Shown here piece after piece: positions 534-54,469 of a stretch of 64,000 bases of DNA (within the stretch, counting starts at the first letter, position 1; each line of letters begins with the position of its first letter). A model generated the notes under the pieces. The model saw only the letters and a list, made by a program, of their open reading frames with translations. It ran no database searches and was not told the DNA's origin. This DNA is from Bacteroidia bacterium (GTDB taxonomy: Bacteria > Bacteroidota > Bacteroidia > UKL13-3), in contig JBILBF010000001.1 of NCBI GenBank assembly GCA_044353855.1, positions 54,462 through 118,461 on the forward strand, in the 5' to 3' direction. A program made the translations under genes and the position numbers.

Positions 534-707
534 AATCTTTTTTCCTAAGAGCAACTTACTATAATTTTTAGGCAGTTACAAAAATTATTATGGGGCTAAT
601 CATAGCATAAAAACTGCCCTATAAAAATCATAAAAAATATGAAGGTATCATTCTCAAATGCCGAATACTTAGATTATTTTCGCGCCACTTTAACAATCTC
701 CCACAAC

Positions 708-2231
708 ATGCAACAACCTAAAAAAATAGCCAATGCCCTTATTTCTGTATTTTACAAAGACGGTTTGGAGCCCCTTGCCAAAGCTTTAAACCAACTTGGT
801 GTGGCTATTTATTCAACAGGAGGAACGCAAGAGTTTATTGAAAAACTAGGCATAAAAGTAAACGCAGTGGAAGCGTTAACGGGTTATCCAAGTATATTAG
901 GTGGTCGTGTAAAAACGTTACATCCAAAAGTATTTGGGGGTATTTTGGCAAGGCGCTCAAACGAAAAAGACCAGCAAGAAGTAAAAGAATTTGAGATTCC
1001 ATTTTTTGATTTGGTAGTAGTAGATTTATACCCTTTTGAAGAAACCGTAAAATCAACTTCGGAAGAAGCTACCATCATTGAAAAAATAGATATTGGTGGT
1101 GTTTCGTTGATTCGTGCTGCTGCCAAAAATTTTAACGATGTGGTTATTGTTTGCGATAAACATGATTGCCCTATAATTGCCGAAACGTTGTTAGCACAAC
1201 AGGGGCAAACATCCATCGAACAACGCAGAAGTTTTGCTACCAAAGCATTCCATACTACTTCGCATTATGATGGCATGATTTTCAACTATTTCGACAAAGA
1301 AACCACTACTGCCTTTAAAGCAAGTGTTGAACCTGCAAAAGTTTTACGTTATGGCGAAAACCCTCATCAAAAGGGATTATTTTACGGCAACTTAGAACAA
1401 TTGTTTACCCAAAAACATGGCAAAGAATTGTCTTATAATAATTTATTGGATATAGATGCTGCTTTAAATTTAATGAGCGATTTTAGTGAGCCAACAGTTG
1501 CCATTATCAAACATAATAACCCTTGTGGCGTTGCCACTCGAACCACTATTCTTCAAGCATGGAACGATGCATTAGCAGGTGATCCTGTTTCGGCATTTGG
1601 AGGTGTAATTGTTGCCAACAAACCTATTGACGAAGCTACAGCTACCGAGATTGATAAAATTTTTATGGAAGTATTAATTGCCCCTGGATATGAGGGCAAT
1701 GCGCTACATATTTTGCAATCAAAAAAGAACCGCGTGTTATTGCAGTTAAATGGAAACTTACCTAACGGCAAACAATACCGCAGTTTGTTAAATGGAGTGG
1801 TTGAACAAGATAAAAACGAGGTGGTATTAACCAAAGAAAATTTAACCTTGGTAACTACAACTGCTGCAAACGAAAATACCTTAAACGATATGTTGTTTGC
1901 TGATAAAATTGTTAAACATACCAAATCAAACACCATTGTGTTTGCCAAAAACGGACAATTATTAGGCATTGGGTGCGGACAAACTTCTCGTGTTGATGCT
2001 TTGAAACAAGCCATAGCCAAAGCACAAGCTTTTGAATTTGATTTGAACGGAGCAGTAATGAGCAGCGATGCTTTTTTCCCTTTCCCTGATTGTGTGGAGA
2101 TAGCAGATAAAGCAGGCATTAAAAGTGTTATCCAACCTGGTGGTTCTATTAAAGATGATGCAAGTATTACCTATTGCAACAACCATGGAATGGCCATGTA
2201 TTTTACAGGAACAAGGCATTTTAAACATTAG
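708..2231 (+). CDS. purH: Bifunctional AICAR transformylase / IMP cyclohydrolase
   Basis: Strong PurH similarity throughout (MQQ..K.ALISV.DK, GGTQEFIEKLGI, GRVKTLHPKVFGGIL, C-terminal YFTGTRHFKH). The ORF track starts at 639, but the MQQPKK start at 708 matches the canonical PurH N-terminus. Confidence 0.9.
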   Translation: MQQPKKIANALISVFYKDGLEPLAKALNQLGVAIYSTGGTQEFIEKLGIKVNAVEALTGYPSILGGRVKTLHPKVFGGILARRSNEKDQQEVKEFEIPFFDLVVVDLYPFEETVKSTSEEATIIEKIDIGGVSLIRAAAKNFNDVVIVCDKHDCPIIAETLLAQQGQTSIEQRRSFATKAFHTTSHYDGMIFNYFDKETTTAFKASVEPAKVLRYGENPHQKGLFYGNLEQLFTQKHGKELSYNNLLDIDAALNLMSDFSEPTVAIIKHNNPCGVATRTTILQAWNDALAGDPVSAFGGVIVANKPIDEATATEIDKIFMEVLIAPGYEGNALHILQSKKNRVLLQLNGNLPNGKQYRSLLNGVVEQDKNEVVLTKENLTLVTTTAANENTLNDMLFADKIVKHTKSNTIVFAKNGQLLGIGCGQTSRVDALKQAIAKAQAFEFDLNGAVMSSDAFFPFPDCVEIADKAGIKSVIQPGGSIKDDASITYCNNHGMAMYFTGTRHFKH

Positions 2232-3392: not shown

Positions 3393-3453
3393 TCGAACTC
3401 TCGAATTTCAAAATTCTCCATTTCGAATTTCGAGGTTCATTATTCGAATTTCA
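3393..3453. promoter_or_regulatory. Array of TCGAATTTC(A/G) motifs in the 78-bp mreB-mreC spacer
   Basis: Units at 3393-3400 (degenerate), 3401-3410, 3423-3433 and 3444-3453. Spacing between unit starts is 22 and 21 bp. The array ends 7 nt before the mreC ATG. Confidence 0.45.
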
Positions 3454-3459
3454 TTCAAG

Positions 3460-26145: not shown

Positions 26146-27987
26146 ATGTGCGGAATAGTTGCATACATTGGCCACAGAGAAGCTTATCCAATTGTGGTAA
26201 AAGGACTCAAAAGACTCGAATACCGTGGATACGACAGTGCAGGTGTAGTATTGTTAAATGACAAAAAAGAATTTTTACTGTACAAGAAAAGCGGTAAAGT
26301 TTCTGATTTAGAATCTACCGTTGGTACACAAGATACCCATGCACATACTGGCATGGGACATACACGTTGGGCAACACATGGAGCTCCCAATGACATAAAT
26401 GCCCATCCACATTTATCTCAAAATGGCGAATTTGCTATTATTCATAATGGTATAATTGAAAATTATGCATCGCTCAAAAGAGCATTAGTTGATAGAGGCC
26501 ACGTTTTTAAAAGTGAAACCGATACAGAAGTCTTAATTCACCTGATTGAAGAGATTGCCAAAAACAATGCAGTAGGTTTTGAAGAATCTGTAAGAATGGC
26601 TTTAACCCAAGTTGTAGGTGCGTATGCCATTGTTATTTTATCCAACAAAGAACCCAATTATTTGATTGGTGCTCGCAAAGGAAGCCCAATGGTTATTGGT
26701 GTTGGCGAAGGCGAACATTTTATTGCTAGTGATGCCACTCCAATAGTGGAATATACACGCAATGTTATTTACCTTAATGATGGTGAAATAGCTATTATAG
26801 ACAATCAAAAACTAACGGTAAAAACAATTGACAATACAATTAAAACGCCTTATGTACAAGAACTCGAAATTAATTTGGAGAGCATTGAAAAAGGCGGTTT
26901 TGAGCATTTTATGATGAAAGAAATTTTTGAGCAACCTCGCTCCATTCTCGATTCATTTAGAGGACGTATTCATATAAACGAAGCAACCATTACCATGGCT
27001 GGATTGGATATGTTTGAAGATAAACTAAAAAACATTAAACGAATTATAATAGTAGGCTGTGGTACAAGTTGGCATGCTGGCTTGGTAGGCGAATATTTAT
27101 TTGAAGACTTTGCCCGCATCCCTGTTGAAGTAGAATATGCATCAGAGTTTAGGTACCGCAACCCTATAATTGATGAGTCTGATTTTGTAATTGCCATTTC
27201 ACAAAGTGGCGAAACAGCTGATACTTTAGCAGCACTTGAACTGGCTAAAAGTAAAGGTGCTACCATTTTTGGAATTTGTAATGTTGTGGGCTCATCTATT
27301 CCTCGGATGACGGATGCTGGAGCTTATACACATGCTGGACCCGAAATAGGCGTTGCATCTACCAAAGCTTTTACAGCACAGGTTACTGCACTCACGTTAA
27401 TGGCACTTTCTGTAGCCAAAATAAGAGGAACTATTAGCAACCAAAGACTACGTGAAATATTAACTGAACTAGAAACTATTCCTTCAAAAGTTGAAAAAAC
27501 TTTGGAATCTAACGAATACATTAAAACCATAGCTGCACAAATTAAAGATACCCGCAATGCCTTATACTTAGGCCGTGGATATGGTTTCCCAATTGCATTA
27601 GAAGGGGCGTTAAAATTGAAAGAAATTTCGTACATCCATGCCGAAGGGTATCCAGCAGCTGAAATGAAACACGGGCCTATTGCACTGATAGATGAAGAAA
27701 TGCCTGTAATTGTAATTGCCACGCAACATAGCAATTACGAAAAAGTAATTAGCAATATACAAGAAGTGCGTGCACGTAAAGGGAAGGTAATTGCGATAGC
27801 TACAAAAGGTGATGAGCATATTAAAGAACAAGCTGACCACGTAATTTATATACCTAAATGCGAAGAGTCCATGTTGCCTTTATTGGCAACCATACCGTTG
27901 CAATTATTATCCTATCATATTGCGGTAATGCGTGAATGTAACGTAGATCAACCACGTAACTTAGCGAAGTCTGTTACGGTGGAATAA
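26146..27987 (+). CDS. glmS: Glutamine--fructose-6-phosphate aminotransferase (isomerising)
   Basis: N-terminal MCGIVAYIG (Ntn Cys2), two SIS domains and C-terminal ...VTVE. Confidence 0.95.
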   Translation: MCGIVAYIGHREAYPIVVKGLKRLEYRGYDSAGVVLLNDKKEFLLYKKSGKVSDLESTVGTQDTHAHTGMGHTRWATHGAPNDINAHPHLSQNGEFAIIHNGIIENYASLKRALVDRGHVFKSETDTEVLIHLIEEIAKNNAVGFEESVRMALTQVVGAYAIVILSNKEPNYLIGARKGSPMVIGVGEGEHFIASDATPIVEYTRNVIYLNDGEIAIIDNQKLTVKTIDNTIKTPYVQELEINLESIEKGGFEHFMMKEIFEQPRSILDSFRGRIHINEATITMAGLDMFEDKLKNIKRIIIVGCGTSWHAGLVGEYLFEDFARIPVEVEYASEFRYRNPIIDESDFVIAISQSGETADTLAALELAKSKGATIFGICNVVGSSIPRMTDAGAYTHAGPEIGVASTKAFTAQVTALTLMALSVAKIRGTISNQRLREILTELETIPSKVEKTLESNEYIKTIAAQIKDTRNALYLGRGYGFPIALEGALKLKEISYIHAEGYPAAEMKHGPIALIDEEMPVIVIATQHSNYEKVISNIQEVRARKGKVIAIATKGDEHIKEQADHVIYIPKCEESMLPLLATIPLQLLSYHIAVMRECNVDQPRNLAKSVTVE

Positions 27988-28016
27988 AGTTATTCATTAT
28001 TGAATTCTTTATATAT

Positions 28017-28057
28017 AAAAAAATGCCATCTTGCACGTTAGTGAGATGGCATTTTTA
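28017..28057. terminator. Bidirectional rho-independent terminator between glmS (+) and the convergent small gene (-)
   Basis: AAAAAAA ATGCCATCT tgcacgttagtg AGATGGCAT TTTTT: a 9-bp stem with an A-run on one side and a T-run on the other. Confidence 0.75.
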
Positions 28058-28082
28058 GTATGTATCAAAGCCTTATTATTAC

Positions 28083-28385
28083 CTAATCAATATTCACACT
28101 GTAAATAGCGTGCATAGGCACAAACGTTTTGCCCTCAAGTGCAATCCCGCTTGCGTTCATTCCAATAATTTTGGTATTCAGCGCTCTAAAACCTTTGGAA
28201 GTATTTATAACTAATAATGTTTTCACCAATATACTACCCGATAGTGTTACTGCTTTTTCCAACGAAACATATCGAACCCTCATATCTTCTGAGCGAGTGT
28301 ATATTTCATCAGTTGCAAACTGATAAGTTGAAAGCTCACTTTCGGCAATTTGTTGTATGTCTCTTAAATTTAATGCTGTATCCAT
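28083..28385 (-). CDS. Hypothetical 100-aa cytoplasmic protein
   Basis: Longest ORF in this interval; it covers two shorter plus-strand ORFs. No signal peptide. Weak Sm/Hfq-like pattern in the C-terminal half (ILVKTLLVIN ... HAIYSVNI); this is speculative. The copy-B repeat element lies immediately upstream. Confidence 0.35.
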   Translation of the reverse strand: MDTALNLRDIQQIAESELSTYQFATDEIYTRSEDMRVRYVSLEKAVTLSGSILVKTLLVINTSKGFRALNTKIIGMNASGIALEGKTFVPMHAIYSVNID

Positions 28386-28398
28386 TTCCTACTTTTTT

Positions 28399-28533
28399 AG
28401 CCGCAGATTGCAACTAATTTTTATCTAAGTCGTGTGAGAGTATAGCCACAAATTAACACAAAAAACTATTTTAGCCTTCAGTGCCCATTTCACTGAATTC
28501 AAGTCTTAAATTAATCTGTGCTAATCTGTGGCA
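28399..28533. repeat. Copy B of the dispersed intergenic element (AGCCGCAGATT ... AGTCTTAAATTAATCTGTGCTAATCTGTGGCA)
   Basis: Left end is at 28399-28409 and right end at 28502-28533. AATCTGTG half-sites repeat in tandem with 11-bp period. Same end architecture as copy A at 359-485. Confidence 0.6.
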
Positions 28534-28548
28534 AATTATATTTAGGTT

Positions 28549-29154
28549 TTACAATGCTGCTTCGAATCTGCGGCTTACTTCGTCCCAGTTTACTATATTC
28601 CAAAATGCAGTACAATAATCTGGTCTACGGTTTTGGTAATGTAAATAATAAGCATGTTCCCAAACATCCAAACCTAAAATAGGTGTTCCATTACAATCCG
28701 TAACTACATCCATCAACGGATTATCTTGATTGGGTGTAGAGCAAATTTTTAGTTTACCATTCTCCACACATAACCAAGCCCAACCTGAACCAAAACGAGT
28801 TGCAGCAGCTTTGTTAAAATCTTCTTTTAGTTTATCCATTCCAACTAAGTCGGCAGTAATAGCAGCTTCAAGTTTTGCAGATGGTTTGCTGGGTGTACCA
28901 CTCAATATAGTCCAAAATAAAGAATGGTTAAAATGACCACCACCATTGTTGCGAACAGCAGCGGGATACTTGCTTATATTTTTGCAAATATCTTCAATCG
29001 ATACATTTTCAGCATCCGTTCCTGCAATAGCATTGTTTAAATTGGTAACATATGCGTTGTGGTGTTTGCTGTGGTGAATTTCCATTGTGCGAGCATCAAT
29101 ATGTGGCTCAAGCGCAGTGTATGCGTAGGGTAATTTAGGTAGTTCGAATGCCAT
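28549..29154 (-). CDS. sodA: Superoxide dismutase (Fe/Mn family)
   Basis: [25 protein letters not shown] and the DVWEHAYY metal-ligand motifs. Confidence 0.95.
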
Positions 29155-36013: not shown

Positions 36014-36084
36014 CTCGAATTTCGAAATAAATGTAAAACGAAAAAACAATCACTTTTCGAATTTCGTTATTCGGATTTCGAATT
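36014..36084. promoter_or_regulatory. Array of TCGAATTTCGA motifs upstream of the M28/QC gene
   Basis: Units at 36014-36027, 36056-36065 and 36070-36084. Spacing between unit starts is 42 and 21 bp. The array ends 12 nt before the ATG. Confidence 0.45.
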
Positions 36085-36096
36085 TATTTTACTGAT

Positions 36097-52032: not shown

Positions 52033-52149
52033 CATTCAAATAAAGAAGTACATTATCTGATTGACTGTTCTTTTTTTAATATGCTAATTTGTAGTAACAC
52101 ATAATTTTCAATTTAAATAATCAGTAACCTGTTTTAATTTTAAACCCTA

Positions 52150-52179
52150 TCGAATTTCGATGTTAGAATTTCGATTTTC
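52150..52179. promoter_or_regulatory. TCGAATTTCGA and GAATTTCGATTTT motifs upstream of thiL
   Basis: Two units, at 52150-52160 and 52165-52179. The second ends 11 nt before the ATG. Confidence 0.4.
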
Positions 52180-52190
52180 CTTTATTAAAA

Positions 52191-53762: not shown

Positions 53763-53893
53763 GGGAATACAAAGTATATATTTTTGTAGTAACCCGTTGC
53801 GATGTTAACTAAAGATAAATAAATATAATCCGTGTAATCAGCGGCTAAAAAATAATTGAAAGACTTAAGTGCGTTTCATTTCGTATTTTTGAC

Positions 53894-53914: not shown

Positions 53915-54469
53915 ATGATATTACCCATTGTAGCATACGGAGATACCGTATTGAGAAAAAAAGGAACATTGCTTAGCAAAGATCATGATGGCTTAGAAAT
54001 GCTTATTGAAAGCATGTGGGAAACCATGTATGAATCAAATGGAGTGGGATTGGCTGCTCCTCAAATTGGCAAATCCCTTAATTTATTTGTAGTTGATGCA
54101 ACTCCTATGGAAGACCCTAACTACACTGAATTTAAAAAAGTATTTATCAATGCCGAAATCATAGAAGAGTTTGGTGATAAATGGGAATACGAAGAAGGCT
54201 GTTTATCCATTCCGCATATTAGAGATAATGTTAAGAGATATTCGGATATAGTGGTTCGGTATATGGATGAAAACTTTGTGGAACATGAAGAAGAATTTAA
54301 CGGCATGCCGGCCCGTGTAATCCAACATGAATATGACCATATTAATGGCGTTTTATTTGTAGATCACCTCTCGGAACTTAGAAAACGATTACTTAAAAAT
54401 AAACTCATTAACATATCAAAAGGAGGAGTGGATGTAGATTACCGCATGCGATTTCCAGCTATTCGATAA
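53915..54469 (+). CDS. def: Peptide deformylase
   Basis: GVGLAAPQIG, EGCLSIP and QHEYDHINGVLF (HExxH) motifs. Confidence 0.9.
   Translation: MILPIVAYGDTVLRKKGTLLSKDHDGLEMLIESMWETMYESNGVGLAAPQIGKSLNLFVVDATPMEDPNYTEFKKVFINAEIIEEFGDKWEYEEGCLSIPHIRDNVKRYSDIVVRYMDENFVEHEEEFNGMPARVIQHEYDHINGVLFVDHLSELRKRLLKNKLINISKGGVDVDYRMRFPAIR

Follow-up and report, generated by a model that had tools for sequence, protein, structure and literature searches.

Here we describe a dispersed intergenic element in a 64,000-nucleotide stretch of DNA from a Bacteroidia bacterium (the window; positions 54,462 to 118,461 of contig JBILBF010000001.1, assembly GCA_044353855.1), and in particular its copy B, which lies between sodA and orf100, a gene for a 100-amino-acid (aa) protein. 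An earlier note on this DNA, made from the letters alone, had recognized copy B as the second copy of an element at 359-533 (copy A), and had suggested that its tandem half-sites, if regulatory, would place orf100 and a serine hydrolase gene at the window start under common control. The minus strand is the sense strand for sodA and orf100 alike, and the features of the locus are, from sodA onwards:

28549-29154, minus strand: sodA (Fe/Mn superoxide dismutase; Pfam Sod_Fe_N and Sod_Fe_C), the upstream co-directional gene
28565-28575, minus strand: outer-arm partner AGCCGCAGAUU, inside the sodA 3' coding end, where it codes for S-R-R-F
28386-28548, minus strand: the whole sodA-orf100 spacer (163 nt), an apparent inserted segment as judged by spacer comparison with relatives
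28513-28532, minus strand: 5' arm of the inner hairpin, GCCACAGATT-AGCACAGATT on the sense (minus) strand, i.e. the half-sites of the earlier note
28477-28497, minus strand: 7-bp loop hairpin (UUCAGUG...CACUGAA), partly conserved in the relatives L224 and L225
28445-28462, minus strand: 3' arm of the inner hairpin, UUUUGUGUUAAUUUGUGGC on the minus strand, pairing with 28515-28532
28399-28409, minus strand: outer arm AAUCUGCGGCU, followed by the A-rich tail UAAAAAAG and adjoining the orf100 start
28083-28385, minus strand: orf100, a lineage-restricted 100-aa protein, the downstream co-directional gene

Folding of the minus strand revealed a nested structure, in which the inner stem joins GCCACAGAUUAGCACAGA to UUUUGUGUUAAUUUGUGGC over 18 bp (including 3 G-U pairs on this strand) around a loop of 52 nt, with an energy of -43.4 kcal/mol (z = -5.5). 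A predicted outer stem of 11 bp (28399-28409 with 28565-28575) encloses the inner hairpin, and the complete structure reaches -57.6 kcal/mol (z = -4.9). The tandem AATCTGTGCT-AATCTGTGGC, which together form AATCTGTGCTAATCTGTGGC (window 28513-28532) and had been taken for binding half-sites, are one arm of this 18-bp hairpin, whose partner at 28445-28462 had been overlooked. Each arm is built of tandem units of approximately 10 nt (GCCACAGATT-AGCACAGATT, or AATCTGTGCT-AATCTGTGGC in the complement), usually followed by W and AAAA. The outer arm of copy B, which reads GCGGC-TAAAAAAG, fits the GGC end, W and A-rich tail of the family, and the tail of its inner arm (TATAC) fits the W and A-rich pattern in part.

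No terminator-like site was found on either strand of 28386-28548, and no U-tract follows the stems (their tails are UAUACUC and UAAAAAA), so that copy B does not have the G+C-rich stem with U-tract of an intrinsic terminator. The Bacteroidota -7 box (TAnnTTTG) does not occur on either strand in 28380-28560 or 320-640. Searches of the whole window against Rfam gave no match at gathering score, and local searches at E <= 10 returned solely spurious miRNA and snoRNA hits, with scores well short of the threshold. Were the element a small RNA gene in its own right, or a member of an already described structured RNA family, the stability of the inner fold would be accounted for, but neither promoter nor terminator was found, no Rfam family was matched and the loop sequence is not conserved across genomes, which makes this explanation barely credible. 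Readings as CRISPR, tRNA-derived sequence or vector contaminant were also considered and dropped, as nothing in the anatomy fits them.

Insertion at the sodA-orf100 junction

The orf100 family comprises 19 clusters, all confined to one Bacteroidota lineage, and all relatives examined retain the order sodA, orf100 and convergent glmS. It was through this family that the informative relatives were found; a metagenome search with SodA for empty sites, in which the SodA C-terminus proved canonical, gave best relatives that were merely 74% identical and non-syntenic. The junctions compare as follows:

Window, P0002 species, L224 and L225: orf100 identity of 100%, 95%, 84% and 79%, respectively; spacer of 145-163 nt with hairpin
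L226, L229 and L231: orf100 identity of 75%, 76% and 56%, respectively; 10 nt from sodA stop to orf100 ATG
L230: orf100 identity of 71%; 23 nt from sodA stop to orf100 ATG
L228: orf100 identity of 74%; spacer of 98 nt holding an unrelated insert in which 20 nt are directly repeated

Since the most distant relative has a short spacer, this state is probably ancestral, and the junction of only 10-23 nt in four relatives therefore identifies the hairpin segment of 145-163 nt as a lineage-specific insertion. It may be concluded from this comparison that the hairpin was probably inserted into an operon junction that originally measured 10 nt. The insert of L228 (L228:1403-1500) is a different one, in which CTGTCAGGCTGAGTTTATCG occurs twice as a direct repeat, and insertions appear to recur at the sodA-orf100 junction.

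Within the spacer, positions 28400-28409 read GCCGCAGATT, the reverse complement of AATCTGCGGC, and exact AATCTGCGGC is found again at 28565-28574, within the 3' end of sodA. The earlier note had reported this third occurrence (3 nt off, at 28562-28571) and had treated it as a likely coincidence. That view is reasonable in that relatives without the element read GTCGTAGGTT, GCCGTAGATT, GCCGCAGGTA and GTCGCAGATT at the same position, with 1-3 mismatches, and the sodA 10-mer is, on this comparison, native S-R-R-F coding sequence close to the arm consensus and outside the insertion; yet it is the exact complement of 28400-28409 and mirrors the outer pair of copy A. Its exact complementarity to 28399-28409 may be fortuitous, or may stem from a preference of the element for landing there or from selection at a later stage. 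A rebuilding of the SodA C-terminus by the element was rejected, as the coding end is native.

Two further observations concern the surroundings of the locus. In L003 and L004, metagenome variants of window ~27970-28080, orf100 is followed by a 92-aa open reading frame (ORF) and an RHS-repeat gene instead of glmS, which indicates a population-level rearrangement adjoining the locus. The L227 contig (orf100 84% identical) stops 21 nt short of orf100, on its upstream side and within the segment bearing the hairpin in relatives, which is consistent with an assembly break at the repeat.

Copies in the source genome and in other phyla

The window contains 6 exact matches to AATCTGYGGC (at 361, 475, 522, 28400, 28523 and 28565), where dinucleotide shuffles give an expectation of 0.21 and 0 of 100 shuffles reached 6; the dispersed element noticed earlier is therefore real. 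A stricter two-unit pattern (ATCNGYG, 1-4 nt, ATCNGYG) was matched three times in the window (466, 28514 and 53828) and once 3.9 kb upstream of it, with 0.06 expected. The loops of copies A and B are similar beyond their arms (1 of 2000 shuffles was as good), and the two are true copies of one element, as the earlier note had held. The additional copies that it proposed to look for genome-wide were also found: one is a complete third hairpin, located 3.9 kb upstream of the window, and the other a solo arm. The members in the window besides copy B are:

361-531, no strand assigned: copy A, built on the same nested plan as copy B, with outer arms at 361-370 and 522-531
393-412 (degenerate) and 465-484: inner arms of copy A
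53828-53845, plus strand: an arm that is solo or degenerate, ATCCGTGTAATCAGCGGC with TAAAAAA after it, in the ruvX-def interval

The genes flanking copy A are divergent, and the inner stem of this copy is decayed. At the corresponding site of L232 (PurH 89% identical) the inner hairpin is absent, the outer-arm-like GTAATCTGCGGC is kept and other tandem-unit modules are present. The purH gene next to copy A (window 639-2231) was probably called 23 codons too long: homologues of 507 aa cover 96% of the 530-aa ORF, upstream of which a conserved leader is common to L232, and a start near 708 is suggested. The third full hairpin (GCCACAGATTAGCACATAAATT ... AAATCTGTGTTGATCTGTGAC, L210:5421-5513, approximately 3.9 kb upstream of the window start) is flanked by genes for a fatty-acid desaturase and an aromatic-amino-acid lyase, both on the minus strand. 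Another dispersed intergenic module, composed of TTCGAATTTCGA-type units, was seen at window 3397-3455, 36015-36089 and 52145-52182, in each case directly upstream of a gene start; the three sites lie after mreB, ahead of a lipoprotein-like gene and ahead of thiL. The module may represent either a second repeat family with tandem units or a motif of promoter regions.

The distribution of the arm was studied by scanning the 20-mer AATCNGTGCTAATCTGTGGC in one genome per species (596 Gb; the counts are lower bounds). The exact 20-mer was found in at least 119 genome stretches, against approximately 4 expected, from at least 10 phyla and often in several copies per genome, while none of 2.9 million viral contigs contained it. 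Hosts among the matches listed include (i) Bacteroidota (Flavobacterium, Chitinophagaceae, Saprospiraceae and Cyclobacterium), (ii) Chloroflexota, with several copies in the complete genome of Herpetosiphon aurantiacus, and (iii) Planctomycetota, Verrucomicrobiota, Acidobacteriota, Ignavibacteria, Treponema (Spirochaetes), Syntrophomonadaceae and an ANME-2c archaeon. One match (L046) belongs to the same metagenome-assembled genome as L225, a relative of the source organism. In two Verrucomicrobiota matches (L031 and L033) the 20-mer lies directly upstream of a tRNA gene, and the Herpetosiphon loci hold rows of several different tandem-unit modules.

The listed matches share more than the 20-mer. 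After the motif, A makes up 77%, 73%, 61% and 56% at positions +2 to +5 (123 listed matches), and the flanks contain sibling modules with other units (AATCCGTG, ATTCGTG, CTTCGTG and TTAGCGG). A GCCACAGATT partner was found upstream in 57 of 124 listed matches, with gaps that are bimodal, being either below 300 nt or 437-495 nt. Loop sequence varies between genomes; in orthologous Flavobacterium copies the arms are conserved. The listed contexts comprise 6 convergent, 13 tandem and 2 divergent gene arrangements.

The pairing of the inner stem was also compared among the three species carrying a hairpin at the sodA-orf100 locus. In the window, L224 and L225 taken together, the sense strand shows 44 Watson-Crick, 6 G-U and 1 U-U cells, and the 6 G-U cells would without exception be A-C mismatches if the antisense strand were folded instead. 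A switch from AU to UA has occurred at one pair of the stem, with the third species holding a UU intermediate, and the inner 3' arm is conserved in L224 and L225 by wobble and compensatory changes. The wobble asymmetry corresponds to approximately 5 independent events (p ~ 0.03) and lends some, suggestive support to a constraint on the inner stem at the RNA level.

REP (repetitive extragenic palindromic) sequences stabilise upstream mRNA in E. coli, and copy B might likewise be a domesticated, host-serving RNA element, e.g. an RNase III site or a 3' stabiliser that uncouples the sodA and orf100 cistrons. The sense-strand wobble pattern and the one compensatory pair in three species would agree with such a role, as would the position between co-directional genes that were ancestrally 10 nt apart, the conserved arms and variable loops of orthologous Flavobacterium copies and the scarcity of divergent contexts (just 2, next to 6 convergent and 13 tandem). 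However, four relatives manage without the hairpin, copy A lies between divergent genes, a U-tract is missing, and the presence of the 20-mer in at least 10 phyla points to horizontal spread and not to a local function; we regard a host-serving role as rather unlikely.

GxxExxY cassettes with the same arms

The 88 ORFs adjoining the listed motif matches contain a sole recurrent family, GxxExxY (TIGR04256; 6 members), the remainder being unrelated housekeeping genes. The GxxExxY protein, of approximately 125 aa in these cassettes, matches Pfam PDDEXK_3 (PD-(D/E)XK nuclease fold), and its alignment shows no variation in the D, E and K residues of the nuclease motif. In the class with the longer gaps (437-495 nt), a GxxExxY gene lies between the motif and its partner in all 8 listed matches, which represent 7 loci, and exact copies of the 20-mer AATCTGTGCTAATCTGTGGC flank GxxExxY genes in L012, L123, L067, L105 and L112, among others. 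Some of these cassettes occupy operons of the NADH dehydrogenase: those of L012 and L123 (Herpetosiphon) are located between nuoF-like and nuoG-like genes, and another (L128, Bacteroidota) directly upstream of a nuoF-like gene.

Inverted arms also accompany GxxExxY genes that were chosen without regard to the arm sequence. Eight such genes (4 elsewhere in the genome loci and 4 in viral contigs) are flanked by inverted arms of 2-3 tandem units of 9-10 nt, whose sequences are quite different (CGCAGAA, CGGAAT, CAAATGA and ATTCGTG). Three of them belong to orthologous cassettes at one site, which have genes of approximately 75% DNA identity and carry three unrelated arm sets, each of which is self-complementary, and in a fourth relative (L221) the site is empty, with neither the GxxExxY gene nor the arms. 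As the arm sets differ and are nevertheless self-complementary, what is conserved is the pairing and the tandem periodicity rather than any given sequence. In 10 of 10 cases the gene preceding the cassette was co-directional. Judged from these sites, the cassette is an insertion/deletion unit carried along in host transcription units.

These results bear directly on the control function proposed earlier, in which tandem AATCTGTG units would be direct-repeat sites of a regulator and the genes beside the copies its regulon. The two units are spaced by 10 nt, i.e. one helical turn, AATC/GATT phasing persists in some arms despite lost pairing, and copies are located directly upstream of the starts of orf100, the hydrolase gene, purH and def. 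Nevertheless, co-regulation of orf100 and the serine hydrolase gene is not supported, because the units constitute one arm of a hairpin that is an insertion missing in four relatives, and no -7 box accompanies them. A shared regulon fits no better: the 20-mer adjoins unrelated housekeeping genes across many phyla (at least 119 stretches), such genes make up most of the 88 neighbouring ORFs, and the unit sequence is freely replaced provided that both arms change together. A role of the units as regulator-binding sites is therefore very improbable.

It could also be argued that the hairpins are pre-existing host structures and that the GxxExxY gene is the mobile part, invading their loops, with the ORF-less hairpins as unoccupied targets; some insertion sequences are indeed known to target REP sequences. 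In favour of such invasion, arm sequences differ among close GxxExxY genes at one site, and the same stem (AAAAAAGCCACCGATT-t-AATCAGTGGCTTTTTTTT, L210:520-541) recurs in what looks like an ordinary bidirectional terminator of the source genome. This terminator (AAAAAAGCCACCGATTtAATCAGTGGCTTTTTTTT) is situated between convergent genes, approximately 8.8 kb upstream of where the window begins, and its stem is the 10-mer of the element with one change per arm. On the other hand, the entire copy B is an insertion into a 10-nt spacer, identical 20-mers across phyla require common descent and transfer of the hairpin itself, and the empty site of L221 is devoid of arms as well as gene. Invasion of resident hairpins is accordingly improbable in our view.

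Interpretation and related systems

With a probability that we put at roughly 0.6, copy B is a non-autonomous, ORF-less hairpin repeat of selfish nature, similar to a REPIN (a hairpin formed by an inverted REP doublet) or a MITE (miniature inverted-repeat transposable element), which belongs to a cross-phylum family of GxxExxY cassettes. No GxxExxY ORF lies between its arms, and copy B is an ORF-less derivative and not a full cassette. Full-length members have these arms on either side of a loop that holds the GxxExxY gene, and they follow a co-directional host gene; the family would spread within and between genomes as selfish DNA. ORF-less hairpins would then relate to GxxExxY cassettes as REPINs do to the genes of RAYTs (REP-associated tyrosine transposases), or as MITEs do to insertion sequences, with the GxxExxY nuclease as the candidate mobilising enzyme. 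Once inserted, the element would be transcribed with sodA and orf100 and fold into a long stem; this stem may be cut, presumably by RNase III as in 23S rRNA intervening sequences (IVS), in which case the host operon would tolerate the element and possibly process it out.

Several observations weigh against this interpretation. No GxxExxY gene is present in the window or in the 9 kb beyond it (73 kb of the source genome), and the comparison with empty sites gave neither a target-site duplication nor an exact insertion boundary, the boundaries being blurred by divergence. GxxExxY proteins whose genes share approximately 75% DNA identity carry unrelated arms, which argues against sequence-specific arm recognition by the protein. 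As regards the RNA, the hairpin at this locus is carried by three species only, which leaves the wobble asymmetry suggestive, and no sense-strand folding bias was detected across phyla (13 tandem contexts, mean difference of 0.3 kcal/mol) in a test that is crude and biased by fixing one arm. Furthermore, the outer arm of L224 is decayed and several Flavobacterium copies pair in the outer 10 bp only.

A wider proposal, to which we give considerably less credence and which we offer as a tentative possibility, is that GxxExxY cassettes and ORF-less hairpins form an undescribed cross-phylum class of selfish elements, i.e. a second REPIN-like system with a PD-(D/E)XK nuclease where the first has a tyrosine HUH transposase, whose members would dwell in operons as "mRNA intervening sequences" processed around their stems, with arms that change together. 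The function of PDDEXK_3 has been listed as "Unknown", with mixed bacterial and archaeal clades (PMC3424549). A PDB sequence search found no solved GxxExxY structure, and searches of PADLOC, PHROGs and PDB with GxxExxY and orf100 gave no match and no defence or phage family. Literature searches covering the motif, GxxExxY, PDDEXK_3, S23p/IVS and REP-like repeats in Bacteroidetes and Chloroflexi yielded no description of the element family, and those on GxxExxY/PDDEXK_3 essentially nothing, with no assigned function.

Taken alone, copy B is of modest interest, being one ORF-less repeat copy, and the interest lies in the family connection. GxxExxY/PDDEXK_3 is a large and widespread family, and its tie to a repeat architecture gives it a testable role and possibly provides a second example of a REP/RAYT-type relationship. 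In practice, such hairpins sit in operons, apparently break metagenome assemblies (e.g. at the L227 contig end) and can be mistaken for regulatory motifs, as happened with copy B.

Among known systems, REP/REPIN sequences and their RAYT transposases (Bertels and Rainey 2011, PMC3116915; PMC3337134; Di Nocera 2013, PMC3733652) are similar in being short, intergenic, palindromic repeats of many copies, whose inverted doublets form long hairpins, and in comprising one protein gene flanked by the same repeats in inverted orientation together with non-autonomous, ORF-less copies. What linked REP to RAYT was this very pattern, in which a small gene lies within inverted repeats and numerous ORF-less hairpins have the same arms (PMC3116915, PMC3337134). 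Nevertheless, a REP is defined as a palindrome of 20-40 nt with a conserved tetranucleotide, GTAG or CGTC, at one of its ends (PMC3733652), whereas the arms described here begin with GCCAC or GCCGC, bear no such tag and consist of tandem 9-10 nt units. The recurrent flanked gene is GxxExxY/PDDEXK_3 and not an HUH Y1 transposase, and identical 20-mers occur across phyla, unlike in REPIN-RAYT systems, which have been described as mostly inherited vertically (bioRxiv 10.1101/2022.05.22.493013).

In the 23S rRNA IVS of Coxiella, Leptospira and Salmonella, terminal inverted repeats likewise pair into a long stem, which is cut by RNase III and holds a small ORF in its loop (PMC4990558). These IVS are embedded in a host transcript and are regarded as selfish and horizontally acquired. 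In contrast to IVS, the present elements reside in mRNA or intergenic hosts (copy B in an mRNA intergenic spacer) and not in a 23S rRNA helix, their ORF is GxxExxY and not the S23p four-helix-bundle protein, and a cut by RNase III is proposed here by analogy.

MITEs and Correia/NEMIS-type elements are 100-200 bp long, have terminal inverted repeats and no ORF, lie near genes and are co-transcribed with them. Copy B resembles a MITE in its inverted repeats and the lack of an ORF, and differs in that the arms are internally tandem-repetitive; no target-site duplication was seen at its boundaries, which divergence has blurred, and we know of no DDE-transposase parent of an element of this type. 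The short tandemly repeated repetitive (STRR) heptamers and small dispersed repeats of cyanobacteria also place tandem units in hairpin-prone, nesting intergenic modules. This architecture is what they share with the present family, whereas units, taxa and gene association differ, and to our knowledge no link to GxxExxY exists for them. In comparison with all of these systems, the element has neither the REP tag nor a RAYT transposase and lies outside the location typical of an IVS, yet it works like a REPIN or a MITE.
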